Positions 1 to 18,450 of a stretch of 64,000 nt of DNA are shown one piece after another (positions within the stretch are counted from its first letter, which is position 1; each line of letters starts with the position of its first letter). The position numbers and the translations under genes are program-made. A model generated the notes under the pieces. That model saw nothing but the letters and a program-made list of their open reading frames with translations, searched no databases and was not told the origin of the DNA. Origin of the DNA: an uncultured Pseudomonadales bacterium (GTDB taxonomy: Bacteria > Patescibacteriota > Microgenomatia > UBA1400 > Chazhemtobacteraceae); the NCBI GenBank assembly GCA_964422035.1, contig CAYQZQ010000001.1, positions 441,013-505,012 on the forward strand, written 5' to 3'.

Positions 1-120
1 CTTTTTTTTCAGAACTTTTCATAGCTGGGATTATAGCAAAATGGCTAGCGAAGAAGGAGATATAAAAGCTTATACTACATGTTTGAGAAGCTTTTAAAAC
101 TCTTCTTTATGTTTTTTGTA

Positions 121-565: not shown

Positions 566-570
566 AGTCT

Positions 571-963: not shown

Positions 964-964
964 A

Positions 965-1360: not shown

Positions 1361-1521
1361 AGGTTATGTTTATTGTAACAAATGGGGAAATACCACGACT
1401 ACTGAATCTTCTTTGGTGAGGCCTACTGTCCCAAATCTCGAACACCTTTTTAACAACATCTTTCAAGTTTACAAGCAACTGAAAAAACTTAGTTTTAACC
1501 AATGCAAGTATTAATTGTTTT

Positions 1522-2190
1522 TTATTCGCGTATAGCAGAAGTACTCAAATGGCTCACTAACATGTGTATTACGTCTTCTTTGCCTTCTTTATAGTAAAAG
1601 AATGGTGTTCTAAAAGAAGCCATTTTGTTTCCACTGTCATCAACTACAACTACTAAATCATGTTGGGAATAATCAAAATCTTTCCATAAGACTAGCTCCA
1701 AGTCGCTGGTTTTATTAGCTGTCCCTACGTCTTTGGCTGAGATAAATTTAAAATTAGGATACTTTTTAGAAGCTGTTTCTACAGGTAAATTAGTAGTAAT
1801 AACTTGTGAAGTTAAGTCATTGGATGTCACTATTTGATAGTGGCTGGCAGCTAAAGTAGTGGCTGTTGAATCTGCTTGAAGTTTTTGAGTACTATTCTGA
1901 ATTTCCTGTGGACGAGCTTTGCGGCCAATAATGGCTGTATCTACTTTATTAAGTCTCAACAACTGCAATGCTTCTTGAGCAGATCCTACTAAGTTAAATT
2001 TAACCTCTTTTGTTGAATTTAACTTATCCACTATTGGCTGCATAGTGGGACAGTAGGCAACTTGAACTTGTGATTCGGCTGCAGTTTGATGAACAGTTGT
2101 TGGAGGCTGAACTGGTTTCTGACTAATAATTGTTGCAGACAAGCCAACAACGACTAGAACTATTAAGATGACGGTTAATCTGCTTTTCAT
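1522..2190 (-). CDS. Exported hypothetical protein with an N-terminal signal anchor (periplasmic binding-protein-like region)
   Basis: 222-aa ORF with an N-terminal hydrophobic signal/anchor. The single Cys lies in CPTMQP. No confident family assignment. Confidence 0.4.
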   Translation of the reverse strand: MKSRLTVILIVLVVVGLSATIISQKPVQPPTTVHQTAAESQVQVAYCPTMQPIVDKLNSTKEVKFNLVGSAQEALQLLRLNKVDTAIIGRKARPQEIQNSTQKLQADSTATTLAASHYQIVTSNDLTSQVITTNLPVETASKKYPNFKFISAKDVGTANKTSDLELVLWKDFDYSQHDLVVVVDDSGNKMASFRTPFFYYKEGKEDVIHMLVSHLSTSAIRE

Positions 2191-2196
2191 ACAAAA

Positions 2197-2490
2197 TTAG
2201 TCTATCATGGAACCCAATAAACAGCTTTGTAAATCTTTGGGGCTGAAGCCAATTAGCTTGATTTTATGCTCATTAACAAAAGATGAGAGCTCTTTTGCTA
2301 GAGACCGAAGATCCTTGTTTTGTAAAAAGTTTTCAATATCTGTAATTGCAGTTTCTGGATGAATGAAAAAATCACCAGTAATTTGAATCGATTCAATGAC
2401 GTAATTGTCCAGTTCTACCTTGAGTCGTAGCATTTTGCCACCTGGAACTTTATAGTTAATTTTTTGCATAATTACCTCCAGTAAGTCCAC
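2197..2490 (-). CDS. Lipoate-protein ligase C-terminal (accessory) domain protein, LplB-like; copy 1
   Basis: 97 aa carrying the motifs KVPGGKMLRLKVELDNYVIESIQITGDFFIHPE and LIGFSPKDL. It is the paralog of ORF 8432..8761 (KVPNGKMLRIRYD..IKIFGDFFIHPEE). Typical of a split LplA C-terminal domain encoded just downstream of the catalytic domain. Confidence 0.75.
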   Translation of the reverse strand: MDLLEVIMQKINYKVPGGKMLRLKVELDNYVIESIQITGDFFIHPETAITDIENFLQNKDLRSLAKELSSFVNEHKIKLIGFSPKDLQSCLLGSMID

Positions 2491-3239
2491 TCTTGAGTTG
2501 TATATTTTTCATTTTTAAGTTTTTTGGCCATCTTTTTCTCATTTGCGCTAGCAGTCTCTGATTTTAAATTAGCCTTAAAAGTAGTGCAAAAACCAGCTTG
2601 AATCGCTTGTTGTAAATTCGAGAAAGTGATATCAGGTAAATGGGTTTGAATGGTGCCGACTCGATCTTCGATTTTTTTTATATTTTTATCAGAAATTTTT
2701 TCAATGGGAATCTTCAGATACTTGACCATTTTATTTACATCAAAATCCAGCAACAGAGTTCCGTGCTGGAGTACGGTTCTGTTTTTCCTGGTTTGAGCAT
2801 TACCTGAAATCTTTTTTCCTTTAAGAGTAATGTCATTGATGCCAGATATGATTGCGTTTAAACCAAGCTGTTGTAAGCCTTCTATAATGCCTTGCTGGAT
2901 GACATGATAAGAATCTTGAATATCAGCCGGGATCATGGGGTGAGATTCTTTGATAATCAAGCTGTAGTTTAACTCCCCTTTGGGATCCTTATAAACAGCG
3001 CCTCCTCCGGTCATGCGCCGGAAAATAGCTACTTTATCCTGTTGGCAGTTATCAAGGTTCACTTCCTGGGCAATAGCTTGGAAATAACCGATTGACACAG
3101 CTGGCTGGTTCCAGCGATAAAAGCGCAACGTGGGTGGAGCTTGGTCTTGGCTGACTGCCCCTAAAACTGCTTCATCCACTGCCATGTGATGGTAGTAATC
3201 ACTGACCTCGTCAGTTGGCAGTAGTCGCCAAGATTTCAT
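2472..3239 (-). CDS. lplA: Lipoate-protein ligase A catalytic domain (split LplA-N); copy 1
   Basis: LRFYRWNQPAVSIGYFQ, RRMTGGGAVYKD and KISGNAQTR are characteristic BPL/LPL catalytic-domain motifs. 255 aa. Confidence 0.85.
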   Translation of the reverse strand: MKSWRLLPTDEVSDYYHHMAVDEAVLGAVSQDQAPPTLRFYRWNQPAVSIGYFQAIAQEVNLDNCQQDKVAIFRRMTGGGAVYKDPKGELNYSLIIKESHPMIPADIQDSYHVIQQGIIEGLQQLGLNAIISGINDITLKGKKISGNAQTRKNRTVLQHGTLLLDFDVNKMVKYLKIPIEKISDKNIKKIEDRVGTIQTHLPDITFSNLQQAIQAGFCTTFKANLKSETASANEKKMAKKLKNEKYTTQEWTYWR

Positions 3240-3241
3240 GC

Positions 3242-4009
3242 TTAAGACTTTTTAACTTCCCTGACTAATAAGTCGGTTAGTGGATGGTCGGGATTAAGAT
3301 CAGACACAGGCATTTGTGTAATAGCCGGTGGATATTTTAGTTCCATTTCTTCTAGTCTAGTGAGTGACTTTTCCAGATCTGGGGGGTTAAAGCCCAACCA
3401 TAACTCATCATCTTGCGAGTTGGCAATACTGCGAGCACCTCCACAAGGGATGGTCATCCAGGGCGATTCGCCTTTAATCACAGCTGCCACAATTTCGCAG
3501 GCTGCATGGCCGTTGAAACTAGATTTAGGCTTATTGCCAGTAGCGTCAAAATAGCCCATTAAGGCTAGGTAACTTTGACAGGAATTAACTAGCAAAATTA
3601 TGGCTTCTGGTTCAAGATCTAGTCGATCAAACTCTTTAAGCGGAGCAAAAACAGCTGCTTCATACTCATTTTGAGGTAAAGCTTCGATTTGTTTTGACAA
3701 TTGCTCAAACCTTTTGGGAGTATAAGCAAAGCCTTTCACCCAGCGATCTTTTAAATCTTCCGGAGGCATAGCAAAACCCATCACATAAGTCCCAACCGTG
3801 CAGGCGTCAATGTTCTCGGTATAGACACCTCTAGTTTTTTCATAAACCGCTACTGTTTTTAATAACTGACACAAAGCACGATTGTTAGCTAAAGGCATGA
3901 TTTCTTTTTCTTTTATCATGTCTTTTGATTTAAGCAGCTTGATTCCGATCGGAGCTCCTTGTGGGCTAAGTAGTTTTTTTGATTTTTCTTGCAGTTGAGT
4001 CAAGTTCAT
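3242..4009 (-). CDS. DUF169-family protein
   Basis: 255-aa soluble protein whose composition and motifs resemble the DUF169 / COG2043 family. It is embedded between the GcvH-like and LplA genes. Confidence 0.55.
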   Translation of the reverse strand: MNLTQLQEKSKKLLSPQGAPIGIKLLKSKDMIKEKEIMPLANNRALCQLLKTVAVYEKTRGVYTENIDACTVGTYVMGFAMPPEDLKDRWVKGFAYTPKRFEQLSKQIEALPQNEYEAAVFAPLKEFDRLDLEPEAIILLVNSCQSYLALMGYFDATGNKPKSSFNGHAACEIVAAVIKGESPWMTIPCGGARSIANSQDDELWLGFNPPDLEKSLTRLEEMELKYPPAITQMPVSDLNPDHPLTDLLVREVKKS

Positions 4010-4032
4010 TTTTTTCCTTGTTAATTTTTAAT

Positions 4033-4419
4033 CTAGGCTTGTTTGCTTTTATCTTGACTCTTTAACAGCTCTTCTTTTTCATTGGGTGCGGTCAGCTCTA
4101 GCTTAGCGATCCAGCCCTTGCCATAGGGATCCTGATTAATTAGTGAAGGCTGATCAAACACTTTTTGATTAACCTCGATTACTTTACCCGAAAGCGGGCT
4201 GGCTAAATGTCCGCTCCATTTGAGTGCTTCTAATGATACATAATTATCTCCCTTTTTTAGTGACTGCCCCTCTTTAGGTAATTTCACAAAAACAAACTCT
4301 TTGACTTTGTCAGCGGCTGGTTTGATTACACCCAAGGTGGCTGTTTTTCCTTGAATATCGACCCAGGTATAATTTGAGTCGTAAAGGAATTTTTCTGGTA
4401 AATTTTCGTTGTTGGTCAT
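4033..4419 (-). CDS. Glycine-cleavage H-protein-like lipoyl carrier (orphan GcvH / LbpA-like)
   Basis: 128 aa with H-protein architecture. The candidate lipoyl-lysine sits in the SLEALKWSGHLASPLSGKVIEVN hairpin region (compare canonical ESVKAASD..SG.V). No gcvT or gcvP is present in the window. Confidence 0.8.
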   Translation of the reverse strand: MTNNENLPEKFLYDSNYTWVDIQGKTATLGVIKPAADKVKEFVFVKLPKEGQSLKKGDNYVSLEALKWSGHLASPLSGKVIEVNQKVFDQPSLINQDPYGKGWIAKLELTAPNEKEELLKSQDKSKQA

Positions 4420-4437
4420 AAGTTGTTTTCAGTAAAT

Positions 4438-5925
4438 TTAATTGTTAATTTGATTTTTTTCTTCTGATTCTTCTTGTTCGACAGTTAGATCTTGGGCTTC
4501 ATTGCCAATCTGAATACCAAATACGGGCAAAATTTTCTTGTGGATAAGGTAAACGACCCCAGTAATGCCAAAAGCTATGCCAAAAACCTTAAACATGCCA
4601 ACTACTTCATTCATTAGTTCTGGTTTTGCTAGCCAAAAATAAGCTAAGGTCAACATAATAATTCCGCCCAGTAGTTTTAAGACACGGCCTTGTTCTTCTT
4701 CAAATTTGCTGGCTTTTAAAGTTAAAAGAATCGTGCCGAAGACAAAGGCTTCGTCCAAAAAGTAAATTAACATATAGAGGGCAAAAAGGGTGGCAAATAA
4801 AACCAAACTAACATTGTTTTCAGACAAAATTGTGGTCCAGATAACTGGAAAGCCGGCAGTGCAAATTAATTCGATAAAAGTGACACCAAAAGCTAAGACA
4901 ATAGTACCAGAAATAAGACCCAGCATTGACTTTTTTTTCATTAACTGGCGAGTATTTTTAAAGATTCCAGGCTTAAAGCGATCAGGAATAGTAAAAGAGA
5001 TACCTTTTTTATACCAAAAGTAGTCTTTAATATTTACTAATCCAAAAATCAAGGCGACTGCAGCCACGGAAAGCTTAATCCATTTCATGTAGCCGATGAT
5101 AGCTAGAGCGTTAAATAAACCTAAAATAAATAGTCCATATACAAGGGTGGCGATTGTAATGAAGGTTAGACCCACAGCAAAAACTTTTTTTCTTGAGCCG
5201 GTATGCAGAACAATACCCAGTAAAAAAGTAATTACCCACAAAGAACAGGGGTTAAACCCATCAACAAAAGCTATCAAGCTGGTCATAACAATTAACGGCA
5301 TATGATCCAAATTTATCTCTCCTAACAGGGGCAATTTGATTGTATGTGCATTTTGAGTGCTTGAGTCGTTTGTTTCTTGCCCCAAAGAGGTGAAGGGAGC
5401 TTCACTTTTTATATCATTGGCTGTATCAGCGGGCTCACTGGTAATTGTCGGAGCTGTGGTTGGTTCACTACTAGCTTCTTCTTCAACTGATTGATTCTCA
5501 TCTGTAGCTACAATACCGGCTTTGACACCCGGATCAATACAGCCTTCTTGCAGACACGATACAATTTTGTTTTCCATATCATCAGCCATGTACTCAGCAA
5601 AACCAACTATTGGCTCGTAGTCGCCAATAAAGGTAGTAGGAACTCCTCTGGCTTGAATGCCGTAAGCCTCAGCCACCTGTTCAAAGACAGCCATGTTTCC
5701 CTGGTTTTGCCAAGTTTCATAGCTTTTAACCTCTAATTGAGAATACTTTTGTTCCATTTCCTCTAGAAAAGGCTTTTCAACTACGCAGTGAGGACAGCCC
5801 TCTCCCCAGAAAAAGTAGACCGTAGTTTTTTCTGCAGCTAAAGCTGGTTGGGCTAAGAATAATAGACAAATAAAGGTAATGACTGCTAGAAAAACTTTCT
5901 TCATATGTTCACTATAACTGATCAA
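4438..5925 (-). CDS. Fusion protein: N-terminal exported thioredoxin-fold domain (CPHC) plus C-terminal CcdA/DsbD-like multi-TM thiol-disulfide transporter domain
   Basis: Signal/anchor, then YFFWGEGCPHCVVEKPFL...GVPTTFIG (thioredoxin fold). An acidic S/T-rich linker follows. Then about 8 TM helices, with a Cys in the FVDGFNPCSLWV membrane segment. Confidence 0.65.
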   Translation of the reverse strand: MISYSEHMKKVFLAVITFICLLFLAQPALAAEKTTVYFFWGEGCPHCVVEKPFLEEMEQKYSQLEVKSYETWQNQGNMAVFEQVAEAYGIQARGVPTTFIGDYEPIVGFAEYMADDMENKIVSCLQEGCIDPGVKAGIVATDENQSVEEEASSEPTTAPTITSEPADTANDIKSEAPFTSLGQETNDSSTQNAHTIKLPLLGEINLDHMPLIVMTSLIAFVDGFNPCSLWVITFLLGIVLHTGSRKKVFAVGLTFITIATLVYGLFILGLFNALAIIGYMKWIKLSVAAVALIFGLVNIKDYFWYKKGISFTIPDRFKPGIFKNTRQLMKKKSMLGLISGTIVLAFGVTFIELICTAGFPVIWTTILSENNVSLVLFATLFALYMLIYFLDEAFVFGTILLTLKASKFEEEQGRVLKLLGGIIMLTLAYFWLAKPELMNEVVGMFKVFGIAFGITGVVYLIHKKILPVFGIQIGNEAQDLTVEQEESEEKNQINN

Positions 5926-5936
5926 TGTTATGGAAG

Positions 5937-5981
5937 TATTTTACCAATATTAAGGGAATGTTAAGATTTGACAAATAAGTT
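5937..5981. promoter_or_regulatory. Conserved ~45-nt motif, copy 1 (TATTTTaCCAATaTTAAGGGAaTGTTAAG..TTGAcaACAAaT), in the divergent promoter region between the thioredoxin-CcdA operon and padR
   Basis: Near-identical to 13357..13401 (about 38 of 45 nt match). Contains the direct repeat TGTTAAG-N4-TGTTAAG (first half-site degenerate in this copy: TaTTAAG). Lies 12 to 56 nt upstream of the minus-strand start at 5925 and overlaps the 5' end of padR. Confidence 0.45.
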
Positions 5982-6392
5982 TATATATGTAACGATGTTA
6001 TGTATGAAAGACAAAATAAGTTGTGAGCCCAAAGGCAGATATCCGGAAAAACGCTGGGTCCAGTTTTTAATTTTAAGAGTTCTTTATGAAAAACCCTCTT
6101 ACGGATACAAAATCGTTGAATCAATTGAAAAGTTAACTGAGGGCAGACATCAAATTAAGCTTGGTTCTATCTATACCTTACCTTATTGCGTCGCATGGAG
6201 AAGCGTGAGCTGTTAACCTCTCAGTGGAAAGAAAGTAAAAAGAATCCGGACAAGAAAATCTACCAAGTTACGAAAAAGGGAGAAGATCTTTTAAAGCAGT
6301 GGTTGGAGGTTGTGATTGAAAGAAGAAAAATGATGACCAAAATGGTCGAATTTTATAAAAAACATTTTAAGGAGGAAGCCAATGAAAATTGA
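5968..6392 (+). pseudogene. PadR-family transcriptional regulator interrupted by a frameshift near 6180 (authentic frameshift or sequencing error)
   Basis: Frame-1 ORF ends ..GYKIVESIEKLTEGRHQIKLGSIYTL then runs out of frame. The frame-3 ORF continues LRRMEKRELLTSQWKESKKNPDKKIYQVTKKGEDLL. Joined, they give the canonical PadR wHTH pattern (G.LY.LL.RLEK.GLL.S.W......R.YY.LT..G). Confidence 0.6.
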
Positions 6393-6687
6393 CAACATCT
6401 TATCTTTGCAAAATTTTTCTAAAAAAGGACCGGTTAAAACCGATATTATAAAATCTAACAAGTTTAACGTGGTGACGGTTTGTCTTGAGGAGAACCAAGC
6501 AATACCGCCCCATCCCGAGCCTTATGCAGTTTTCTTTTTGGTACTGAAAGGCAAGGGTGTATTTACTAAAGGCAAGGAAAATTTTGAACTTGAACAAGGC
6601 TCAGAACTTTTTGTTGAAAATAACGAACTAAGAGGGATTAAAGCTTTAGAAAAGTTGATTATTTTAGGGATTCAAGATGGACATTAA
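6382..6687 (+). CDS. Cupin-domain protein
   Basis: 101 aa with a two-His cupin-like core (PPHPEPYAVFFLVLKGKG...ELFVENNE). Strong SD (AAGGAGG) upstream. Confidence 0.55.
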   Translation: MKIDNILSLQNFSKKGPVKTDIIKSNKFNVVTVCLEENQAIPPHPEPYAVFFLVLKGKGVFTKGKENFELEQGSELFVENNELRGIKALEKLIILGIQDGH

Positions 6688-7624
6688 TCAACAAAACACA
6701 AAAGCGATCGAGGTAATTGAGCTTAGTAAAAAATTTAGACAACTAACAGCTGTTGACGATATTTCTTTTGAGGTCAAAAAGGGAGAGGTCTTTGGATTTT
6801 TGGGCCCTAATGGCGCCGGTAAGACAACCACTGTAAGAGTGTTAACCGGATTGACTAAGCCAACCGAAGGTCAGGCAAAAATTTTTGATCATGATATTGA
6901 AAAAACAGATATCGAAGCTAAAAAATTAATTGGTATGGTGCCTGAAACATCTAATGTATACGATGAATTATCGGCTTGGGAGAATCTGATTTTTACGGCC
7001 GATCTTTATCAGCTGAAAAAAAGTCAAGCTGAGAAAAGAGCCCAAGATTTACTCAAAACCTTTGAGCTTGTTAAGCGCCAAGATGACAAAGTTAAGGGTT
7101 TTTCCAAGGGCATGAAAAGAAGGCTAACTCTGGCCATGGGTTTGATCAATAGTCCGCAATTATTGTTTTTAGATGAGCCAACTTCGGGCTTGGATGTGGA
7201 GAGTTCGCTTATTATCAAGGAGATGATTAAAAATTTAAGCCAACAACAGATCACTATTTTTCTCACAACCCATGACATTAAAGAAGCCAGTAGAAGTTGT
7301 GATCGGGTGGCTATTATTAATCATGGCAAAATTGCTGCGATTGATACCCCGGAGAAATTAAAAACAACCATTGAGAGTGTCCAGTCGATTGAAGTAGTTT
7401 TTAATCAGACGGTCTCTTTGACTAAAATAAGTTCTTTGAAAAAACATGATTTTATCAATCAAGTTCAAAAAAAGGCAGACAAGTATAAATTATTTACTGA
7501 TAAGCCAGAAAGAGCTTTAAAAAAGCTGTGGGATTTTAGTTTAACAAACAAGTTAAAAATCACCAGTCTAAACACTCTCGGTCCTGATTTAGAAGAAGTT
7601 TTTATCAAATTAACCAAAAAATGA
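6677..7624 (+). CDS. ABC transporter ATP-binding protein (ABC-2 exporter type)
   Basis: Walker A GPNGAGKTTT, ABC signature FSKGMKRRLTLA, Walker B LLFLDEPTSGLD. Confidence 0.9.
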   Translation: MDINQQNTKAIEVIELSKKFRQLTAVDDISFEVKKGEVFGFLGPNGAGKTTTVRVLTGLTKPTEGQAKIFDHDIEKTDIEAKKLIGMVPETSNVYDELSAWENLIFTADLYQLKKSQAEKRAQDLLKTFELVKRQDDKVKGFSKGMKRRLTLAMGLINSPQLLFLDEPTSGLDVESSLIIKEMIKNLSQQQITIFLTTHDIKEASRSCDRVAIINHGKIAAIDTPEKLKTTIESVQSIEVVFNQTVSLTKISSLKKHDFINQVQKKADKYKLFTDKPERALKKLWDFSLTNKLKITSLNTLGPDLEEVFIKLTKK

Positions 7625-8367
7625 TGAATAAGAATCTCACCAACAACCTGAGAGCGGCTTGGTCAATTACCAAAAAGGATATCATGATTTACTATTTGAA
7701 ACCTGGAACCTTGATGTTTGGTGTTATGTTTCCTTTGTTTATGTTTCTTTCTTTTGCTGTTGGCAGAAATGTGCCGACCTCATCTTTAATTCCAGGTTTA
7801 ATTTCTCTGACAGTCTTATTTTCGGCTTCATCGATTGGACCAGTGGCGATTCCAGTAGAAAGAAGGGTTAAAACTTTTGAAAGGCTGATCGCTGCTCCGA
7901 TATCTTTTTATGCTGTTATTTTGGGAAAAGCTTTAGGGGGAGTTCTGTTTAGCGTAGCTATTAGCTTAATCGCTTTATTGGCAGCTTGGTTGTTTCTGGG
8001 AGTAATTTTGTTTAGTCCAGCCACCTTACTCTTTGCCTTAATTTTTGCTTCATTATGCTTTTCTTTGCTGGGAATCATGTTTGCTATGTTTCCTACGGAA
8101 AATCCAGGAAACATTATGATCATGCTTAATTTTATCCGTATGCCGCTAATGTTTATTAGTGGAATTTTTATCCCAATCAAAACGCTGCCTTTATGGGCAC
8201 AAACAATCTCTTACTTTTCACCTCTAACTTATGCTAATGATTTGTTTGGTTTTGGAATTGAAGGCAAAATTAATTTAGGTTTGTTTACCAACCTGATGGC
8301 TCTACTGCTTTTTGCCGGCGTTTTTCTTTTTGTTGGTCTTCGATTGGACAAGAAATTTAGGGAATAG
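7621..8367 (+). CDS. ABC-2 family transporter permease
   Basis: 248 aa with 6 TM helices. Translationally coupled (ATGA overlap) to the ATPase. Confidence 0.75.
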   Translation: MMNKNLTNNLRAAWSITKKDIMIYYLKPGTLMFGVMFPLFMFLSFAVGRNVPTSSLIPGLISLTVLFSASSIGPVAIPVERRVKTFERLIAAPISFYAVILGKALGGVLFSVAISLIALLAAWLFLGVILFSPATLLFALIFASLCFSLLGIMFAMFPTENPGNIMIMLNFIRMPLMFISGIFIPIKTLPLWAQTISYFSPLTYANDLFGFGIEGKINLGLFTNLMALLLFAGVFLFVGLRLDKKFRE

Positions 8368-8431
8368 TCTTTAGTCAAACATTAAAAGACAAAAAGATTA
8401 GTCAAGACACATCAAGTCATCAAGATTTACC

Positions 8432-8761
8432 TTAAATAAGTGCATTTTCTATATCAATTGGGGTAAAACCAATCAAGGTTATGTTTTTTTTATCAACAAA
8501 CTTAGTTAAGTTTTTAGCTACTTGATTGATTTTCTTGCCAATTAAAAACTGCTCTATGTCTAAAATTGACTCTTCCGGGTGTATAAAAAAATCACCGAAA
8601 ATTTTAATGTTCACGATAGTATCGTCATTAGAGTCATATCTGATTCTAAGCATCTTCCCATTTGGAACTTTATAGACTATATTTTTTTTCATAAAGCTAT
8701 TTCTAACGCCAATAATTCCATTTATCGCTTGTATATTTTTCTTTGTATAATTTTTCGGCAT
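8432..8761 (-). CDS. Lipoate-protein ligase C-terminal (accessory) domain protein; copy 2
   Basis: Paralog of 2197..2490: KVPNGKMLRIRYDSNDDTIVNIKIFGDFFIHPEE...LIGFTPIDI. Confidence 0.75.
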   Translation of the reverse strand: MPKNYTKKNIQAINGIIGVRNSFMKKNIVYKVPNGKMLRIRYDSNDDTIVNIKIFGDFFIHPEESILDIEQFLIGKKINQVAKNLTKFVDKKNITLIGFTPIDIENALI

Positions 8762-9512
8762 GCTTTAATTCTTCAAAAGTCAGTTCTTTAACTTCAGTTT
8801 TTATATTAAACTTTTTTTCAAAACCATAAATAAGCGCCTTTTCTATTTCTTTATTTGCAATGTTTTTTCCTAACTCGTTTTTTAACGAGGTTACTCGCTC
8901 TTTGGCCGTTTTTATCATTTTATCTTTAATTTTTTCGTCAGGGACATTTAGCACGGAAAACATTTTTTCAAGATCCAGATCCAAAAGTATCGTTCCGTGC
9001 TGTAAGACCACGCCTGACTGTCTGGTTTGGGCATTACCGGATATTTTTTTATTACCGACAATAATATCATTTATGGGTTTGAATTCCGCTTTTATGCCAA
9101 GAGAAAGTAGGGCTTCAACTATAGCACCGCAGATTTCTTTGTAAGATCCAACTATATCAGAAGAAACATCTTTTTCAGAAATGGTGAGAGAATAAGTTAG
9201 TTCATGTTCATGTAAAACTGCGCCTCCGCCAGTATACCTTCTAACTACGTCTATATTTTTAGACTGAGCCTTGATAAGATCTATTTCATCTTCCAGATTT
9301 TGAAAAAAACCAATTGTTACACAGGATGGTTGCCACTTAAAAAATCGCAGAGTGTTTGGAACTGTACCTTTTATGCGCGCTGTAAGAATGGCTTCATCAT
9401 TAGCCATCTGTTTTGCACCGCTGTCCGCAGTTGTTTTTATAAGTCTCCAGGTGTTCATATTTTTATTTACACATAGTGTCAGCTTGATACGAGCTCCTAA
9501 CCAAAGGTCCAA
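8703..9512 (-). CDS. lplA: Lipoate-protein ligase A catalytic domain; copy 2
   Basis: LRFFKWQPSCVTIGFFQ, RRYTGGGAVLHEHE, KISGNAQTR. Overlaps the 3' end of lipA. Confidence 0.85.
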   Translation of the reverse strand: MDLWLGARIKLTLCVNKNMNTWRLIKTTADSGAKQMANDEAILTARIKGTVPNTLRFFKWQPSCVTIGFFQNLEDEIDLIKAQSKNIDVVRRYTGGGAVLHEHELTYSLTISEKDVSSDIVGSYKEICGAIVEALLSLGIKAEFKPINDIIVGNKKISGNAQTRQSGVVLQHGTILLDLDLEKMFSVLNVPDEKIKDKMIKTAKERVTSLKNELGKNIANKEIEKALIYGFEKKFNIKTEVKELTFEELKHAEKLYKEKYTSDKWNYWR

Positions 9513-10308
9513 CTGAAATTTGTTTGATGCCTATTTTTTTGGCAATCGCCCTAATTTTTTTAAACTCTTCTGGTTTATAATATTTCTTTACCGAAAAATG
9601 TACTGAGCTTGGCTGTAAATACTGACCTATTGTGACTATATCACAACTGCTTTTTTTCAAATCCGTAAGTGTTTCAATTATTTGCTCATTTGTTTCACCT
9701 AAACCAAGCATGATGCCGGATTTGATTTTTATTCTCGGCTCAAATTCTTTTGTTTTTCTTAGAAGTTCTAGAGACAATCTGTAATCACCTCTAGGTCTTA
9801 CTAGGGTAAAAACATCTTCAACAGCCTCTAAGTTATGGTTAATCACATCAGGTCCGGATTTTATGATCTTTTGAAGCGCTGTCCAATTACCGTTTAGATC
9901 AGAGATTAACACTTCAATTGTACAACTTGGATTTATTTTTTTTATCGCCTTGATTGTTTTTATAAATTGGTCAGCGCCACTGTCTGCCAAATCATCTCTG
10001 GTAACGCAGGTTATCACCACATAATCCAACTTCATCTTTTCAGTAGCAATAGCAATCCTTTTTGGTTCTTGGGCATCAACAGTTTTTGGCCAACCTGTTT
10101 TGATATTACAGTAACGACAATTTCTGGTACAAACGTCACCTAAAATCATAAAAGTAGCTGTGCCGGCAGCAAAACATTCATAACGGTTGGGACAATTTGC
10201 TTCCAGACAAACCGTAGTTAGTTTATATTCATTTATAATATCTAAAGTCTTCAGATATGCTTTTTTATCGCATTGCTTAATTTTAATCCAATTGGGCAAG
10301 TTATCCAT
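9463..10308 (-). CDS. lipA: Lipoyl synthase (radical SAM)
   Basis: Auxiliary cluster CLEANCPNRYEC and radical-SAM cluster CTRNCRYC. 281 aa. Confidence 0.9.
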   Translation of the reverse strand: MDNLPNWIKIKQCDKKAYLKTLDIINEYKLTTVCLEANCPNRYECFAAGTATFMILGDVCTRNCRYCNIKTGWPKTVDAQEPKRIAIATEKMKLDYVVITCVTRDDLADSGADQFIKTIKAIKKINPSCTIEVLISDLNGNWTALQKIIKSGPDVINHNLEAVEDVFTLVRPRGDYRLSLELLRKTKEFEPRIKIKSGIMLGLGETNEQIIETLTDLKKSSCDIVTIGQYLQPSSVHFSVKKYYKPEEFKKIRAIAKKIGIKQISVGPLVRSSYQADTMCK

Positions 10309-10309
10309 A

Positions 10310-10585
10310 TTAAGAAAAAACAGTATTTTGCTCTATTAAAGTGATCAAATCTGCATAAGAGATAAGTTTAACACCGGCCTTATTATCAACCCCTCTTAAT
10401 TTTAGGTCTTGATCTATGACTGAAATACTTGCACCCTTTTCTTTAATTGCGCCAATAAGATTATTTTTAGGATTATGACAAACTAAAACGCCATCTTGAA
10501 TTAAAACGGTAATATCCCCCTTTTTAATAAAGCGCAATATTTGCTTGTGCCGACTGAGATCGTTTGATTTGATAATAAATAACAT
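10310..10585 (-). CDS. TusB/DsrH-family sulfur-relay protein
   Basis: 91 aa with DsrH-like topology. It is third in a tusD-tusC-tusB-like gene order. Confidence 0.6.
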   Translation of the reverse strand: MLFIIKSNDLSRHKQILRFIKKGDITVLIQDGVLVCHNPKNNLIGAIKEKGASISVIDQDLKLRGVDNKAGVKLISYADLITLIEQNTVFS

Positions 10586-10591
10586 ATGTGT

Positions 10592-10972
10592 TTAAAAATT
10601 AATTATTACACCCACTCCTCTGACGAGTTTGTTTATCTCTTTGTCAGCTAAAATTTCAACCTGTTGGATTTCCTGTATTTGAATGTTCCTCTCAGTTAAG
10701 CTGTTGGCATCGGCTGCAACTTTCAAACCAAATTCGGTAGCATTGGCAAAACCTTCTTTTAAGCTTCCCGCCCCAATTAGATCAGGATTTTGTTTTTTTA
10801 GCAGGGAAAATACACCATCATCGGAAAAAACTAAGAAAGTATCTAAATCCATTCCGGCAAAAGCAATACCGGCTCTGACAGCCTCAGCCGGGAAAACCGT
10901 GCCAAATGGCGGATTATTAACGATTATTAGTACTTTTTTTGTCATATGTTCATAGATTGATAAATTTGTCAC
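10592..10972 (-). CDS. TusC/DsrF-family sulfur-relay protein (probable true start at M of MTKKVLIIVNN, ~10945)
   Basis: DsrE/DsrF-like fold (VLIIVNNPPFG...) lacking the active-site cysteine, as in TusC/DsrF. Confidence 0.6.
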   Translation of the reverse strand: MTNLSIYEHMTKKVLIIVNNPPFGTVFPAEAVRAGIAFAGMDLDTFLVFSDDGVFSLLKKQNPDLIGAGSLKEGFANATEFGLKVAADANSLTERNIQIQEIQQVEILADKEINKLVRGVGVIINF

Positions 10973-11294
10973 ACTCCTTGACCATGTCAGCCAAACCAGG
11001 CAAACCTTCTAACTCTCCCTGAGGTAAAAGCTGGTCTTTTTTTATCCCACGGAATTGGATACAAACACCGCAAATCTTGATTTCTGCTCCCAAGTCAGCC
11101 AGTTCTGCCATTCTTTGATATAAATTTCTCTCTTTGGCTGAATTGATATCTTTATTGACGGCAATGACACTATCAACATAAAGAAATATTTTCACTTGGT
11201 GTTTTTTAGCTATCGCGGCTTTACTAAGGTAATAAAGCGTGTCAATGTCTTGATATGTGTATGGTGGCTTGGTGACTAATATGCCTAATTTCAT
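10950..11294 (-). CDS. TusD/DsrE-family sulfur-relay protein (active-site Cys present)
   Basis: 114 aa, KLGILVTKPPY N-terminus. The conserved Cys sits in an EIKICGVCIQFRGI context like TusD Cys78 / DsrE. Confidence 0.7.
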   Translation of the reverse strand: MKLGILVTKPPYTYQDIDTLYYLSKAAIAKKHQVKIFLYVDSVIAVNKDINSAKERNLYQRMAELADLGAEIKICGVCIQFRGIKKDQLLPQGELEGLPGLADMVKECDKFINL

Positions 11295-11312
11295 ATTTTA
11301 TTTGTGAATTTA

Positions 11313-12356
11313 TTAATTGTTTTTTATAAACATAAAATAAGCTAATGTCCAACCACCTGAAATGATGAATATACCCGCAAGAATACTGGAGATTGCTAAT
11401 TGAGGCACGCCGCTGAGAATATGTCCTATGTTACAGCCCCCGGCTATTATCGCACCAAAACCCATTAAGGATCCTCCGGCCAGAGATTGTAATCCAACTT
11501 TAGCTTTTGGCAAACGAATTTTAAATTCATTACCCAATTTAGAGCCAATGAATGAACCTGCAACTAGACCAATAACTTGGAATGATTCCCATGTTAAAAA
11601 GTTCTTTCTTTGTAAAATTGATTTAAGAATTGTTTCAAAGCCTGTGGTTATTCCCAAGGGATAATTACGCCCGGATAGGGATGAAAAAATAAATGCCAAT
11701 ATACCAATAAAGCCAATTGCAAGTCCGGTTAGTTTCCACGACCAACCCATGTTAAAAAGTTTTCCAGTCCAGTTTATCTTGTTACCCTGCTTCAGCTTAT
11801 TGTCCTGGATGCTAATTCCGCTATCTTTTTTCTTAAGGCCGCAAAATAACAACACAAAAATTATGCCGGCGAAAATTAAAACAAAAAACTCAGCAGGAAT
11901 TCCTGATATCGAACTGAGCGTTAAAGGACCCTTATTTAAAGTTTGAACTCGGGTGACAAAATCGGATAAAAATCCATCTTTGGCTAGATATGCGGCCATA
12001 ATAAATCCAAACAAAGCTATTAAAGAACTGATCATGCCCTCACCAACGCGGTAAGCTGTTCCGCTGGCACATCCTCCTGTTAAGACCATCCCGGCTCCGA
12101 ACATATAGCTACCTAAAGGTATGGCAAGTAGATAAAGAGGCTTGGGATTAAGCTCCACAATGCCAAGAGTGCTTATAATATAAAAACCAAGTAACTGAAC
12201 TACAATCGCTAGTCCTACTGCTTTAAGTAAAGTGAAATCCTTGAATAGGAGTGGATCACGAAAAGCCGAGTTCATGCAAAATCTCCCCCTTTGCAATGCA
12301 AGGCCGAAAAGAAGCCCCACTAATAATCCGCTAATTATGGAGAAGACACTAAGCAT
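11313..12356 (-). CDS. YeeE/YedE-family sulfur-compound (thiosulfate-type) transporter
   Basis: Two-repeat membrane protein with the conserved Cys motifs GRFCMNSA, GGCASGTAY and AGGCNIGHILSG. Confidence 0.8.
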   Translation of the reverse strand: MLSVFSIISGLLVGLLFGLALQRGRFCMNSAFRDPLLFKDFTLLKAVGLAIVVQLLGFYIISTLGIVELNPKPLYLLAIPLGSYMFGAGMVLTGGCASGTAYRVGEGMISSLIALFGFIMAAYLAKDGFLSDFVTRVQTLNKGPLTLSSISGIPAEFFVLIFAGIIFVLLFCGLKKKDSGISIQDNKLKQGNKINWTGKLFNMGWSWKLTGLAIGFIGILAFIFSSLSGRNYPLGITTGFETILKSILQRKNFLTWESFQVIGLVAGSFIGSKLGNEFKIRLPKAKVGLQSLAGGSLMGFGAIIAGGCNIGHILSGVPQLAISSILAGIFIISGGWTLAYFMFIKNN

Positions 12357-12377
12357 ATTTAGATTATTTGATTAGAT

Positions 12378-12953
12378 TTATAGTTTTGATGCCGGATTAA
12401 GGCAGTTGTTCTCCACGCAATAAATGATTTTACTTTCCATGTCGTCGGCCATGGATTCGGCAAAACCGACAATTGGTTCATAATTACCGATGAAAGTAGT
12501 GGGAACTCCTCTGGCTTGAATGCCATAAGCTTGAGCCACCTGCTGAAACAGTTCTAAGTTTTCTTTGTTTTTCCATGTCTCATACATCTTTACCTCTAAC
12601 TCAGGATACTTCTGTTCCATTTCCTCTAAAAAAGGCTTTTCAACTGCACAATGAGGGCAGCCATCTCCCCAAAAAAAGTAGATTACTACAGACTTTTCTG
12701 ACACTTCTTCGCTGTCTTCTATATTTGTATTGCCTTCTTCGTTTTCAACCACTGCTTCCCCTTTTACCGATTGCTTTTCTTCCTCTATTTGAGTGGTAGT
12801 ATTTTCTTCTTCCTGATTTTCAGTGACTGTGTTTTCGAGCGAAGAAATTTCATTGTTAGTGTTTTTATTACTACCGATTGTTTGAGTAAAAAGAAATAGC
12901 CCTAAGCCCAGTGTTAGTACTATTGTCAATATTGATATTTGTTTTTTATTCAT
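12378..12953 (-). CDS. Secreted thioredoxin-fold protein (CPHC); paralog of the N-terminal domain of 4438..5925
   Basis: Signal peptide, an N/E/T-rich low-complexity linker, then IYFFWGDGCPHCAVEKPFLEEMEQKY...GVPTTFIG. About 85% nucleotide identity to 5600..5850 over ~230 nt. Confidence 0.7.
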   Translation of the reverse strand: MNKKQISILTIVLTLGLGLFLFTQTIGSNKNTNNEISSLENTVTENQEEENTTTQIEEEKQSVKGEAVVENEEGNTNIEDSEEVSEKSVVIYFFWGDGCPHCAVEKPFLEEMEQKYPELEVKMYETWKNKENLELFQQVAQAYGIQARGVPTTFIGNYEPIVGFAESMADDMESKIIYCVENNCLNPASKL

Positions 12954-13021
12954 AATTTTACTTTTATTTAGTTTAATTTAATAATAAATGCAGTTGGATG
13001 CGTTGATAGTTAATATTCTAA

Positions 13022-13276
13022 CTACTTAACTTGAATTAGAAGCCGGTGGTCAGGACCGGACTCTATTTTCTCTACTTTAAGCATTTTATGTCCTTCTTTT
13101 TCACAGTTACGCGGGATTCTCTCTAAAGATAAAGGATAATCAGTTAAAACCTCCAATATCTCTCCTGAGCTCATTTTTTTAATTTTTTTTCTTGTTCTTA
13201 TGTCCGGATAAGGACAAATCTCACCTCTGACATCAATGCTCTCTGTTGCCCGAATCTTTTTGTTTTCTTCTGTCAT
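13022..13276 (-). CDS. tusA: TusA-like sulfurtransferase (SirA/YedF/YeeD family)
   Basis: Conserved CPxP motif (IDVRGEICPYPDIRTRKKI). 84 aa. Confidence 0.8.
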   Translation of the reverse strand: MTEENKKIRATESIDVRGEICPYPDIRTRKKIKKMSSGEILEVLTDYPLSLERIPRNCEKEGHKMLKVEKIESGPDHRLLIQVK

Positions 13277-13356
13277 ATAAACTTTCTTTTAGAATTATTT
13301 TGGAAATGTAAAGGTTAATTATGTATCCATATTATAATCAATCAATGTTGTGAGAC

Positions 13357-13401
13357 TATTTTGCCAATGTTAAGGGAGTGTTAAGTTGAGGACAAGTTAA
13401 G
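13357..13401. promoter_or_regulatory. Conserved ~45-nt motif, copy 2, upstream of the tusA-trx-yeeE-tusDCB-lipA-lplAB operon
   Basis: TATTTTgCCAATgTTAAGGGAgTGTTAAGtTGAggACAAgTTAAG. Matches 5937..5981 and lies 80 to 125 nt upstream of the tusA start. Confidence 0.45.
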
Positions 13402-13431
13402 CTGAAATCATGTCAAGCGCTGGTTTATTTT

Positions 13432-14583
13432 TCATTTCAAAGGCAGCCTAACTTTAAAAGTAGTGCCTTTTCCCAACTCACTTTTGACTTGAATTTCTCC
13501 TTTGTGAGCTTTAATAATTTTTTGAACAATGGTTAAACCAATTCCAATTCCCTCATGGCTGCGCGATTTATCGACTTGAAAAAATCTTTCAAAGATTAGA
13601 GGCAGATCTTCTTGTTTAATGCCCATCCCTTCATCGATAACTTTAAAGCACAACTCTTGCTGATCGGATTGATAGGTTTTGAGAGTGATGGTGCTGCCTG
13701 CAGATGAGTACTTAATAGCATTATCTAAAAGATTAGAGATCACCTGCTGTATCTTTTGCTCATCTAATTTAATCTTTGGCAAGTTGGCTTCCAGTTCGAG
13801 CTTTAACTCAATATTTTTATTTTCTAGTTTTTTTTGAAATGATTGGGCTGCTGTCTTGATTAAATCATTAATGTTTGCGTAAGTTTGATTAAGTTTTGGA
13901 TCCTCACTTTCCAGAATAGCTAATTTTTTCAAGTCTTTAATTAGCTGAACAACTCGCTTAGTTTCTTCTTTAATTAATTTAATGGTTTCTCGTTGTTTAT
14001 CTGGCTCACTGATCACGCCGTCTGAGAGTGCTTCTAGATAGCCATATATGTTAGTCAGAGGGGTTGAAAGCTCGTGAGACATGTTGGCAACTAGTTCTTT
14101 ACGCAGAGTTTCAGTTTTTTCTAAGCTTTGATACATCTCATTGAGTGCTTTAATCAACTCGTCTGTTTCATCGTAAGTTTTGGTCTTGATTCGCACTTGA
14201 TAGTTGCCGGTACTAGCCCGTTTGGCTGAAGCGATAATTTTTTGAAAAGGTTTTAAGAAATTGTGGCTAAAAAGATAACCTAACAACAAGGCAATTAATA
14301 AACCAAAAAGGCTAGCAATTAAAAGAGATTGATTAATTGATTGGAGAAACCGCTGCCCGTTTTGGCTGCGCATACACTCAGGTAAGCCGTTTGTTGAAAG
14401 TTCGCAAAACTGCTGAAAGTGTTGGTTAACAGCAAACTTAGTGACTAAAGTCACAAAACCTACCGTAATCACTAAATTGATTACAAAAAGCAAAATAAGC
14501 TTCCATTTTAATCCTAATTTTATTTTCATAAGAACAGATGAGTTAGTCGACCAATTTATAACCAACCCCTTTGATTGTAGCAA
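13432..14583 (-). CDS. Sensor histidine kinase (2 TM, HAMP, HisKA, HATPase_c)
   Basis: H-box MSHELSTPL, N-box LLDNAIKYS, G-boxes DEGMGI and GIGLTIV. Confidence 0.85.
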   Translation of the reverse strand: MLQSKGLVINWSTNSSVLMKIKLGLKWKLILLFVINLVITVGFVTLVTKFAVNQHFQQFCELSTNGLPECMRSQNGQRFLQSINQSLLIASLFGLLIALLLGYLFSHNFLKPFQKIIASAKRASTGNYQVRIKTKTYDETDELIKALNEMYQSLEKTETLRKELVANMSHELSTPLTNIYGYLEALSDGVISEPDKQRETIKLIKEETKRVVQLIKDLKKLAILESEDPKLNQTYANINDLIKTAAQSFQKKLENKNIELKLELEANLPKIKLDEQKIQQVISNLLDNAIKYSSAGSTITLKTYQSDQQELCFKVIDEGMGIKQEDLPLIFERFFQVDKSRSHEGIGIGLTIVQKIIKAHKGEIQVKSELGKGTTFKVRLPLK

Positions 14584-15220
14584 TTAACTCTTGGCTGTGA
14601 TCTTTTAACTTTTTTCTTAAATTTGAAATATGAACATCAATGGTGCGATCATAAACTTCTGCAGCTTCATTGGCATAGACTATATCTAAGAGTTCAGTTC
14701 GTGAATACACTACTCCCGGACGCTTGATCAAGGCTAGTAGCAGATCAAATTCTCTGAGAGTGAGATTAATTTCCTGCCCATCTTGCTTAACTTCAAAGCG
14801 CTGGGGATCAACTTTAAGACTTTTTACTTGGTAAATTTGTGAGTCAATGTCACTTTCTTGGAAACGCCTTAGGACTGTTTTAACTCTAGCCACTAGCTCT
14901 TGGGGGCTAAAGGGTTTAGTCACATAATCATCAGCTCCTAACTCCAAGCCAATGATTTTGTCTGTTTCTTCATCTTTTGAAGATAAGATGATGATAGGAG
15001 TTTTATTGTTTTGACGGATTTTTTTTAAAACAGAGATGCCGTCCTTTTCAGGTATCATTAAATCCAAAATAACAAGGTCTGGCTTTTTGTTTTGAAAAAT
15101 TTCCAACCCACGCAATCCGTCCTGAGCTGTAAAAATTGTAAAGTTTTCTTTTTCAAGATAAAGCTCCAATAGACGAATAATTTTAGACTCATCTTCGATA
15201 ATAAGAATACGTTTATTCAC
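14543..15220 (-). CDS. OmpR-family response regulator
   Basis: Receiver domain (ILIIEDE..DLVILDLMIP) plus a winged-helix trans_reg_C domain (YSRTELLD..VDVHISNLRKKL). Confidence 0.9.
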   Translation of the reverse strand: MNKRILIIEDESKIIRLLELYLEKENFTIFTAQDGLRGLEIFQNKKPDLVILDLMIPEKDGISVLKKIRQNNKTPIIILSSKDEETDKIIGLELGADDYVTKPFSPQELVARVKTVLRRFQESDIDSQIYQVKSLKVDPQRFEVKQDGQEINLTLREFDLLLALIKRPGVVYSRTELLDIVYANEAAEVYDRTIDVHISNLRKKLKDHSQELIATIKGVGYKLVD

Positions 15221-15417
15221 GGTTAATATATTTTACAAATTTAGAATGAATTTAATTAAAAATTACAAATAGAAAAATTTAAAAAGAATAAAAGCGACCA
15301 CTACAGTTAATAAGACAATTGAAGATAAATATTTTTTTACTCATTGTTTTGTTATGCTCGCCTTATTTAATAGTTATTGACTAATGTTTTCTAAATATAA
15401 ATTTTCGTAAATTAGAC

Positions 15418-16581
15418 TTATACTACTCCGTAAATTAAACCGGCTAAAGTAGTTAAAACTATAATGGTTAAGGCGTAAACTAAAGTTTTCTTAGTACCAA
15501 TTAGTTTACGAATAATCAACAGCCCTTGTAATGATAACACCGGATCAGACAATAAATAAGCCATCAGCGGCCCCTTGTTCATACCAAGCTTCATAAAGTT
15601 TTCAGCAATAGGCACTTCAACCAAAGCTGGGAAATAAGCAATAGCACCAAATAAGACGGCTACAAAATTGGTCAGCAAATTGTTGTTGCTAGTTAAATTT
15701 CTAAATTGTGCTTCTGGGATGAGGAATGTGATAACGCTAGCAGCAAAAACACCTATCAAAAGGGTGGGTACAATCTCATTAATAAACTTGACTGTTTCGT
15801 CCCACCACAATTTACGTTGATCTTTTTTAATCCACAAAAGGCTAAAGATAAAAACCATAATAACTAAAAAGATTATTGAAATATACTTAAATTGGTTACC
15901 AATTGGGGCGGTGCCTATAATTAAAATGGTAAATAAAATTATCCAAAAGATTTTACTTTGCTTGCTGTTTTTAAAGGCTTTAGTCTTCTCGATTAAAGTT
16001 AATTTCCCTGTTTCCCCCACTGCTTCATGCTTAAAAACTAGTTCCATCACTAAACCAACCACAATAGCAAAAACTACCGATAGAATAAATCGAATAATCC
16101 CAAAATTCCACCCCAGACGCTGACCGGTTAATAAGAGCGAAACAATGTTAACAGCCGGTCCAGCATAAAGAAAAGTAGCAGCAATACCAAGACCCGCGCC
16201 CTTTTTCCAGATACCAGCAAATAAAGGCAAAATGGTGCAAGAGCAAACTTGAATAAAAAACCCACCCAATGAGGCAATAAGGTAAGCCAACCATTTTTTA
16301 GTCTTACCACTTAAATATTTTAAAACTTGATGTGAATCCAGCAAACTGTTGAGTGCTCCAGCAATAAAAAAAGCGGGAATTAGACACAGCAAAACATGGG
16401 CTGATAAATAATCAACTAAGCCCAACCAGCCTTCATAAACGGCTGAACCAATTAAAACTTGAATGTTTTCTGCACTTAAAAAGTTGGTAATTGGAACCTG
16501 CCACAAGAAAATTATCAGGTAAGTTAAAAACAAACCGATTAAAACTATGTTTTTTTTAATAAGATCCACAATTTTCGACAT
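15418..16581 (-). CDS. DUF318/COG0701-family permease
   Basis: 387 aa with about 10 TM helices and a CSCTILP motif. Sits in the classical arrangement with ArsR and a small redox-active thioredoxin-like protein. Confidence 0.7.
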   Translation of the reverse strand: MSKIVDLIKKNIVLIGLFLTYLIIFLWQVPITNFLSAENIQVLIGSAVYEGWLGLVDYLSAHVLLCLIPAFFIAGALNSLLDSHQVLKYLSGKTKKWLAYLIASLGGFFIQVCSCTILPLFAGIWKKGAGLGIAATFLYAGPAVNIVSLLLTGQRLGWNFGIIRFILSVVFAIVVGLVMELVFKHEAVGETGKLTLIEKTKAFKNSKQSKIFWIILFTILIIGTAPIGNQFKYISIIFLVIMVFIFSLLWIKKDQRKLWWDETVKFINEIVPTLLIGVFAASVITFLIPEAQFRNLTSNNNLLTNFVAVLFGAIAYFPALVEVPIAENFMKLGMNKGPLMAYLLSDPVLSLQGLLIIRKLIGTKKTLVYALTIIVLTTLAGLIYGVV

Positions 16582-16593
16582 ATTATTCTTTTC

Positions 16594-16854
16594 TTATCCC
16601 TCTTTAATTTTAGAAATGATTTCTTCCTTACTAGGCATACCAGTAGCCGCAACTTCATCATTAATCACCAAAACCGGGCTACTCATCACTCCCATTTCCA
16701 TAATTTTCTGAATTCCTTGTGTACCTGACAAATACTCAATTTCAATATCGTCAGAATTAACCCCAGAAATTGTTCCTTCGCTTACAATTTTTTTAACTAA
16801 ATTGTGTAACTCTTGACAGGTGTGGCAGCCCGAACCTAAAATTTGAACCTTCAT
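16594..16854 (-). CDS. Thioredoxin-family redox-active disulfide protein (small CxxC protein)
   Basis: 86 aa. The CxxC motif GCHTC is near the N-terminus. Lies between the arsR-like and permease genes. Confidence 0.75.
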   Translation of the reverse strand: MKVQILGSGCHTCQELHNLVKKIVSEGTISGVNSDDIEIEYLSGTQGIQKIMEMGVMSSPVLVINDEVAATGMPSKEEIISKIKEG

Positions 16855-16880
16855 AATATTTTTCTAATTTGTAATAGTAA

Positions 16881-17195
16881 CTAGTTGACTAGAGCTAAAA
16901 TGTGACTTGTAACTTTCTGTCCTTTTTTAGTTAATGAGTAGTAAGCTCGTCGACCCTCTTTTCGTTTGTTCACTAATTTAGCTTTTTTTAAATCGGCTAA
17001 GTGATGAGAAATCAAACTTTGCGACATAGCAAAATTTTTTGGAACCTCACAAATGCAATGCTCGCCACTATTAAGCAAACATAATAATTTTAAGCGATTT
17101 TTTTCACCAATTAATTTGAGAAAATTTGATAGCGAGGTAAGTTTTTCAAAATCTTCTGAATTTATCTTACAACATTTATATGAACTCATATTCAT
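16881..17195 (-). CDS. ArsR/SmtB-family transcriptional regulator
   Basis: wHTH with a metal/redox Cys pair, HCICEV...SQSLISHHLADLKKAKLV...RAYYSLT. Confidence 0.8.
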   Translation of the reverse strand: MNMSSYKCCKINSEDFEKLTSLSNFLKLIGEKNRLKLLCLLNSGEHCICEVPKNFAMSQSLISHHLADLKKAKLVNKRKEGRRAYYSLTKKGQKVTSHILALVN

Positions 17196-18396: not shown

Positions 18397-18450
18397 TAAT
18401 TATAAGGATATCAAATTTTATTTTTATTATAAATATATAAATTATGGTTA

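Follow-up and report, generated by a model that had tools for sequence, protein, structure and literature searches.

The known sites closest to the one described here are direct repeats. The PHO box of PhoB and PhoP consists of two 7-nt repeats lying 4 nt apart, that is, two 11-nt units bound head-to-tail by winged-helix domains (PMC4415409). The site of SaeR, an OmpR-family response regulator, is the direct repeat GTTAAN6GTTAA (PMC5083920), and the WalR consensus is TGTWAH-N5-TGTWAH (PMC4168254). The DNA analysed here, referred to throughout as the window, is a whole stretch of 64,000 nucleotides from an uncultivated Patescibacteria lineage, in which an 18-bp box is shared by the promoter regions of two minus-strand operons. 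The box has the 7-4-7 layout of the PHO box, with two 11-nt units lying over the predicted -35 region (PMC4415409). Copy 2 agrees exactly with the SaeR site, and copy 1 reads ATTAA-N6-GTTAA, a form that is also found among confirmed SaeR sites (PMC5083920). The stretch TGTTAA-N5-TGTTAA fits the WalR consensus exactly (PMC4168254), and the response regulator and histidine kinase encoded beside the second operon have YycF and WalK among their highest-scoring models.

Beyond the site itself, there are differences from these systems. Unlike the PHO-box systems, the kinase here has a Cys-pair loop, predicted to be extracytoplasmic, and no PAS domain, and both regulator and kinase score below the PhoB/PhoR thresholds. 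Unlike those of the Pho regulon, the proposed targets are thioredoxin-like, GcvH, lipoylation, TusA, DsrE and YeeE genes, with no phosphate genes nearby. The SaeR system of Staphylococcus aureus is unrelated both in lineage and in its virulence-factor regulon, and no orthology is claimed; its kinase, SaeS, belongs to the intramembrane-sensing type. In the WalR/WalK system, which controls cell-wall genes, the kinase has PAS and extracellular domains. The scores seen here are far below the WalR and WalK cut-offs (206 against 340 and 260 against 725, respectively).

A further comparison system is resABCDE of Bacillus, in which thiol-disulfide oxidoreductase genes occur with ResD/ResE. Here, too, the genes of a two-component system share one row with those of CcdA/DsbD-like and thioredoxin-like envelope proteins, but the site and signal of ResD are not those of the present locus. 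In [Bacillus] enclensis (L075, 215-3942), the box is followed by CcdA (DsbD_TM), a response regulator (44% identical to that of the window), a histidine kinase, a membrane protein and a ResA-like thioredoxin. The kinase at that locus is without the Cys pair. The thiol-linked two-component module may thus have a counterpart here in a Firmicute.

One box in two promoter regions

The earlier note described a shared element at 5937-5981 and 13357-13401, and an element is indeed found there. Its likeness between the copies holds, at a level slightly below the 38 or so of 45 identities given for it: the ungapped count is 30/45, and about 36 columns match when two 1-nt gaps are allowed. The first 29 nt of the two intervals are identical at 26 positions. 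The conserved block reaches 24 nt farther gene-ward than that element, and the best ungapped segment (5913-5965 versus 13333-13385) has 43/53 identities, or 81% over 53 nt by BLAST. A MAFFT alignment of the two intergenic regions contains one conserved block with unrelated flanks. Ungapped 40-nt extensions on either side are at random-level identity (13/40 at 5873-5912; 12/40 at 5966-6005, an extension that overlaps the distal, gapped part of the element first described), and the best of 200,000 random 45-mer pairs drawn from the window reaches 28/45. A 22-nt core, CCAATRTTAAGGGARTGTTAAG, has only two sites in the 64 kb when up to three mismatches are permitted, with none expected from 100 shuffles. 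A dispersed or mobile repeat was considered and rejected, as self-BLAST of the window returned only the promoter block, a thioredoxin (Trx) paralogy and a weak LplA C-terminal similarity.

Both copies do lie upstream of the first gene of a minus-strand operon. The boxes end 43 nt before ATG 5904 and 91 nt before ATG 13276, and each of these start codons opens a tightly packed minus-strand gene row. The elements of the two promoter regions, and the operons that follow them, are:

5913..5975, minus strand: whole conserved block, copy 1, containing TTGGTAAAATA and, as the predicted early transcribed part, CATAACATTGATCAGTTATAG
13333..13395, minus strand: whole conserved block, copy 2, from the alignment and BLAST
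5948..5965, minus strand: box, copy 1, CTTAACA-ttcc-CTTAATA, two 7-nt half-sites with a 4-nt spacer
13368..13385, minus strand: box, copy 2, CTTAACA-ctcc-CTTAACA, a perfect repeat
5935..5940, minus strand: putative -10 hexamer AATACT, 7 nt downstream of box 1, from the promoter scan and the same offset in relatives
13355..13360, minus strand: putative -10 hexamer AATAGT, 7 nt downstream of box 2, from the promoter scan and the same offset in relatives
5926..5932, minus strand: heptamer CATAACA, resembling a third half-site and in phase with the proximal one, which lies 22 bp upstream
13346..13352, minus strand: heptamer CACAACA, resembling a third half-site and in phase with the proximal one, which lies 22 bp upstream
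1522..5904, minus strand: proposed target operon 1, encoding a Trx-like plus membrane protein (488 aa), GcvH, DUF169, LplA, an LplA C-terminal protein and a 222-aa protein
8432..13276, minus strand: proposed target operon 2, encoding TusA, a Trx-like protein, a sulphur transporter of the YeeE type, DsrE, a DsrE-like protein, DsrH, lipoyl synthase, LplA and an LplA C-terminal protein

The direct repeat previously read within the element, TGTTAAG-N4-TGTTAAG, is exact in copy 2 (13368-13385) and has one mismatch in copy 1 (TATTAAG-GGAA-TGTTAAG, 5948-5965). Read gene-ward, both copies consist of CTTAACA-N4-CTTAA(C/T)A, 7 nt, and a -10-like hexamer, AATACT or AATAGT. In both, there is an 18-bp, 7-4-7 direct repeat with an 11-bp period, as is characteristic of OmpR/PhoB sites (half-sites about 6-7 nt long that recur every 10-11 bp). 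A promoter scan independently chose TTAACA-18 nt-AATACT in copy 1 and TTAACA-18 nt-AATAGT in copy 2, which makes the TTAACA of the distal half-site a putative -35-like hexamer with an 18-nt spacer. Other choices of -10 were set aside (TAAAAT with a 15-nt spacer; TATAGT/TATAAT farther downstream), the hexamer 7 nt past the box being preferred because its position is common to the related sites described below. The gap of 7 nt between box and -10 is ~3-6 bp shorter than in the pho promoters of E. coli. As in Bacillus promoters activated by PhoP, the box covers the -35 position and TTAACA is found on the coding strand.

Some features of the two regions lie outside the repeat. About 25 nt downstream of the predicted -10 hexamer are conserved in both copies and are not accounted for by binding of a response regulator. 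The two copies have an identical 9-nt stretch, AACATTGAT, near the predicted transcription start, and the heptamer CAYAACA falls within it. Copy 2 alone has an extra upstream pair, CTTAACT-tgtc-CTCAACT (13379-13401, minus strand), which is absent from copy 1; it is offset 16 bp from the main pair, with a 2-nt overlap.

The adjacent two-component system and its relatives

On the same strand as copy 2, and directly upstream of it, are the genes of a response regulator and a histidine kinase, a pair that the earlier note had not considered:

14543..15220, minus strand: OmpR/PhoB-family response regulator, the proposed binder (Response_reg PF00072 and Trans_reg_C PF00486)
13432..14583, minus strand: histidine kinase (TM, 35-aa loop with Cys-X9-Cys, TM, HAMP, HisKA and HATPase; no PAS)
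15418..17195, minus strand: ArsR, Thioredoxin_3 and ArsP_1 permease genes, upstream of the regulator, with synteny kept in relatives and a palindromic promoter element of their own

We assign a probability of about 0.78 to the reading that both copies are sigma-70-type promoters with the 18-bp box as their -35/spacer region, and that the box would be bound by this adjacent regulator and not by PadR or ArsR. Besides the geometry of the repeat, two observations of the kind expected for OmpR/PhoB sites argue for it: a regulator with receiver and Trans_reg_C domains is encoded nearby, and the box co-occurs with the regulator, the kinase and orthologues of the targets across Patescibacteria. The best named models for the regulator are PhoB, RpaB, MtrA and YycF, all of them below the equivalog cut-offs, and its closest solved relatives are BaeR, RegX3, MtrA and PhoP.

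The true start of the kinase is likely ATG 14529. By the positive-inside rule, its 35-residue loop is predicted to lie outside the cell, and the loop motif FC-X9-C is kept in 11 of the 13 kinase orthologue sequences. The longer form HFQxFC-X9-C is seen in kinase residues ~55-90 and in orthologues from L033, L078-L080, L082, L083, L085, L086, L107 and L109. Both cysteines are missing from the kinases of L084 and L108; the ArsR and Trx neighbours are missing there as well, and ArsP_1, Cupin and PadR genes are found instead.

The orthologous group of the regulator is small and comes from Patescibacteria assemblies (Shapirobacteria, Moranbacteria and others), with 52-63% identity in the regulator. 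The conserved gene order is ArsR, Trx_3, ArsP_1, (DsbD_2), regulator and kinase, then Trx-membrane protein, GcvH, LipA and LplA. In L080, L082 and L086, the regulator and kinase are followed by orthologues of the 222-aa and Trx-membrane proteins, either directly or within ~5 kb (L080). GcvH comes next in L080 and L082, and L082 adds a Pyr_redox enzyme, lipoyl synthase and LplA.

The box recurs in these relatives. Across 175 kb, comprising the window and eight loci, the strict box [CT]TTAA[CT]A-N4-[CT]TTAA[CT]A is found eight times, against 0.14 expected from shuffles, and all eight are intergenic and aimed at the downstream gene. The layout of box, 7 nt and hexamer is seen in ten related loci with 52-63% identical regulators, again intergenic and always aimed at the downstream gene. 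When aligned on the proximal half-site, it is common to 11 sites in seven genomes, and in 9/11 the second base of the hexamer is A and the sixth is T (hexamers include CATAAT, TATAAT, AATAAT and AATATT). The box precedes the regulator's own operon in L033, L080, L082, L084 and L086, the orthologue of operon 1 in L080 (15824-15841) and L082 (11819-11847), and other thiol-related genes in L078; the distal half-site is degenerate in L078, L084, L086 and L107. As a hold-out, the pattern was fixed first and three further orthologue loci (L107, L108 and L109) were then fetched. All three have a co-oriented match with two mismatches in the intergenic DNA upstream of the operon of small gene, regulator and kinase; two is the lowest mismatch count in each of these loci, and L107 and L108 each have one other such match elsewhere. 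The idea of a common operator for the two promoters, raised in the earlier note, is supported, with the same box in both and recurring at related promoters.

Not every locus conforms. In the window, no autoregulatory box was found upstream of the regulator or of ArsR, unlike most relatives in the case of the regulator. No box-like sequence was found in L085, nor in the nearest relative, L077, a 4.1-kb contig with an 83% identical regulator that ends before the relevant intergenic regions. Scans of genomes and metagenomes by DNA pattern gave no near relative of the window; the genome scan returned one related Patescibacteria locus, L033, its other matches being mostly Pho-type promoters of other phyla. 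A separate, hairpin-forming sequence, GATAACTTATATACAGTTATC, is conserved in L033 (~2620-2660), L080 (~9250-9300) and L086 (~9390-9440) and absent from the window. It lies in the leader of a small gene (125-150 aa) without a Pfam match; in L033 this gene is missing at this position, and the leader runs into the regulator gene.

Other explanations of the shared element

The strongest competitor is that the element is a true Pho box, with the adjacent pair being PhoB/PhoR and both operons responding to phosphate limitation. A scan with AATNTTAAGGGANTGTTAAG, using one genome per species, found 76 loci in many phyla, often with 3-4 in-phase repeats. The identical box, TGTTAAGGGA(N)TGTTAAG, is seen among L001-L076 and L087-L105 (e.g., L012, L017, L028, L041, L049, L052 and L076). 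Genes that follow an identical 18-20-nt box encode PstS-like proteins, PhoU_div, a Na/Pi cotransporter with a PhoU domain, PPK, alkaline phosphatase and TonB receptors, and they come from Bacteroidota, Ignavibacteriota, Chloroflexota, Bacillota and Acidobacteriota. In those organisms the same sequence is evidently a Pho box, and it looks like a cross-phylum Pho-box consensus; a metagenome scan with a longer core likewise gave matches resembling Bacteroidota-type Pho promoters. The occurrence of an identical Pho-box-type sequence across so many phyla therefore means that identity of the motif alone is insufficient for inferring a regulon.

This box before phosphate-acquisition genes elsewhere, together with the fact that PhoB is the top NCBIfam model for the regulator (223 bits), is what speaks for a Pho system here. 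Nonetheless, we regard it as improbable. Regulator and kinase miss every PhoB/PhoR equivalog cut-off (TIGR02154, 223 against 296; NF053854, 191 against 270; TIGR02966, 226 against 334), and the kinase has a conserved Cys-pair sensor loop in place of any PAS domain. No pst, phoU, ppk or phosphatase genes were found in the 64-kb window by tblastn, and none beside the regulator orthologues of 11 further loci by precomputed Pfam lists; the conserved neighbours and the genes behind the box are thiol/lipoate genes. Hence, that the element works like a Pho box is supported, but, given the missed thresholds, the PAS-less Cys-pair kinase and the lack of a nearby phosphate gene, that it belongs to the Pho regulon is not.

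The earlier note proposed instead that the operator is bound by PadR, which would then regulate its own gene and both operons, or by an ArsR-family protein, and either is very unlikely. Some points of gene order favour them: PadR is divergent from operon 1, a Cupin-PadR pair follows the regulator and kinase in L084 and L108, and ArsR is syntenic with the two-component pair in most relatives. PadR and ArsR dimers, however, use inverted repeats, and the present element is a direct repeat of 11-bp period in the layout of winged-helix OmpR/PhoB proteins, which disfavours both. The PadR gene is moreover frameshifted:

5995..6392, plus strand: PadR gene, divergent from operon 1, split by ACCTT/ACCTT at 6175-6184

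The two frames match positions 1-36 and 39-74 of the Pfam model, the split being due to the 5-bp tandem duplication of ACCTT. Removing one ACCTT copy restores the PadR reading ...GSIYTLLRRMEKRELL..., and the gene as found is either a pseudogene or an assembly error. Its reported overlap with copy 1 holds for the mechanical TTG start of the open reading frame at 5968, but not for the in-frame ATGs at 5995 and 6004. PadR is also missing from most of the loci that bear the box (L033, L078, L080, L082, L086, L107 and L109) and occurs only in L084 and L108 among the related loci. As for ArsR, the box is not palindromic, whereas the promoters of ArsR genes carry different elements that are: ATGAA-N6-TTCAT in the window, and ATATCAATAC..TTGATAC in L080 and L086. 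These palindromes, located at ~17180-17200 of the window (minus strand; ATGAATATGAGTTCAT), ~4930-4960 of L080 and ~6190-6220 of L086, are probably the ArsR operators.

A third explanation is that a promoter was merely duplicated, so that the likeness of the two copies stems from the Trx duplication without any shared regulator site under selection. The paralogous Trx-like domains belong to the genes in first place in operon 1 and in second place in operon 2, and their segments (5564-5819 versus 12427-12682) have 80% DNA identity by self-BLAST, about equal to the 81% of the promoter block, and 68/84 amino acids in common. This points to one duplication that would have carried the promoter block along with the Trx domain, copy 2 having gained TusA and a low-complexity linker by insertion; some of the likeness between the copies could go back to this event. 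Third codon positions of the duplicated Trx segment are only 59% identical, though, and at that rate (0.59) 43/53 identities would have a binomial probability of 5e-4. With the non-coding flanks at random level as well, the promoter block is more strongly conserved than the nearly neutral positions that were duplicated with it. In addition, the box is found at orthologous positions in distant genomes, beyond the reach of a shared duplication. Support across genomes is limited to the 18-bp box and the distance at which the -10 hexamer follows it. We consider this explanation, too, to have very little chance of being correct.

The weakest candidate, that both mRNAs share a structured RNA leader or riboswitch, has in its favour the ~25 conserved nt downstream of the predicted -10 hexamer and is highly improbable, with Rfam at the gathering threshold returning only two tRNAs in the whole window, lax Rfam scans of both intergenic regions giving only chance-level matches, folds of both strands no better than shuffles (z-scores +0.6 to +1.5), unequal distances from box to start codon (43 versus 91 nt), and a conserved core that is a DNA-type repeat.

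A putative thiol/lipoate regulon

If the adjacent regulator is the binder, phosphorylated protein (14543-15220) would occupy the repeat as a head-to-tail dimer and would most likely activate both operons in parallel. Activation is somewhat favoured over repression, given the weak -10 hexamers, the sub-optimal 18-nt spacer, and a box placed over the -35 as in PhoB/PhoP-activated promoters; repression by occlusion would be the alternative, as the proximal half-site ends 7 nt from the -10 hexamer. The partner kinase (13432-14583) would probably sense the thiol/disulfide state of the envelope or a thiophilic metal. Our confidence in this signal is low, and it is suggested by the Cys pair and by nearby genes for thioredoxin-like, DsbD-like, ArsR-type, and permease or cation-efflux proteins.

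The content of the two operons bears on what such a regulator might control. In the 488-aa protein of operon 1, a signal peptide is combined with a thioredoxin-like and a multi-pass membrane domain; the 222-aa protein has no Pfam match. Between them, the operons hold two separate sets of LplA and LplA C-terminal protein, one lipoyl synthase and one GcvH-like protein. No P or T protein of glycine cleavage and no 2-oxoacid dehydrogenase subunit was identified among the open reading frames examined (1-18,500). The presence of LplA, LipA and GcvH beside TusA, DsrE, DsrE-like, DsrH, YeeE and DUF169 genes, with no P/T protein or dehydrogenase subunit identified in that range, suggests a lipoyl-protein-based thiol or sulphur relay.

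The cis element is real, selected and of a well-known textbook kind; it is the two-component system and its predicted thiol/lipoate regulon that are uncharacterized, and a literature search found no paper on this system. To our knowledge, almost no transcriptional regulation has been mapped in a Patescibacteria lineage of this sort. The locus would provide a concrete, if putative, regulator-site pair and two-operon regulon for such uncultivated bacteria, in which a sensor kinase with a conserved Cys pair is tied to thioredoxin-like, GcvH, lipoylation and sulphur-carrier genes. A broader and more tentative possibility, which we hold to be doubtful at present, is that the box, the Cys-pair kinase and the PhoB-like regulator constitute a Patescibacteria-wide regulon for envelope thiol stress (or thiophilic metals), in which Pho-box specificity was kept and the targets were rewired. 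If that is true, the rewired targets would be a lipoyl-GcvH/thioredoxin-membrane redox module and a module for sulphur trafficking and lipoylation, and these minimal-genome organisms would possess an undescribed lipoate-linked envelope redox system under two-component control.
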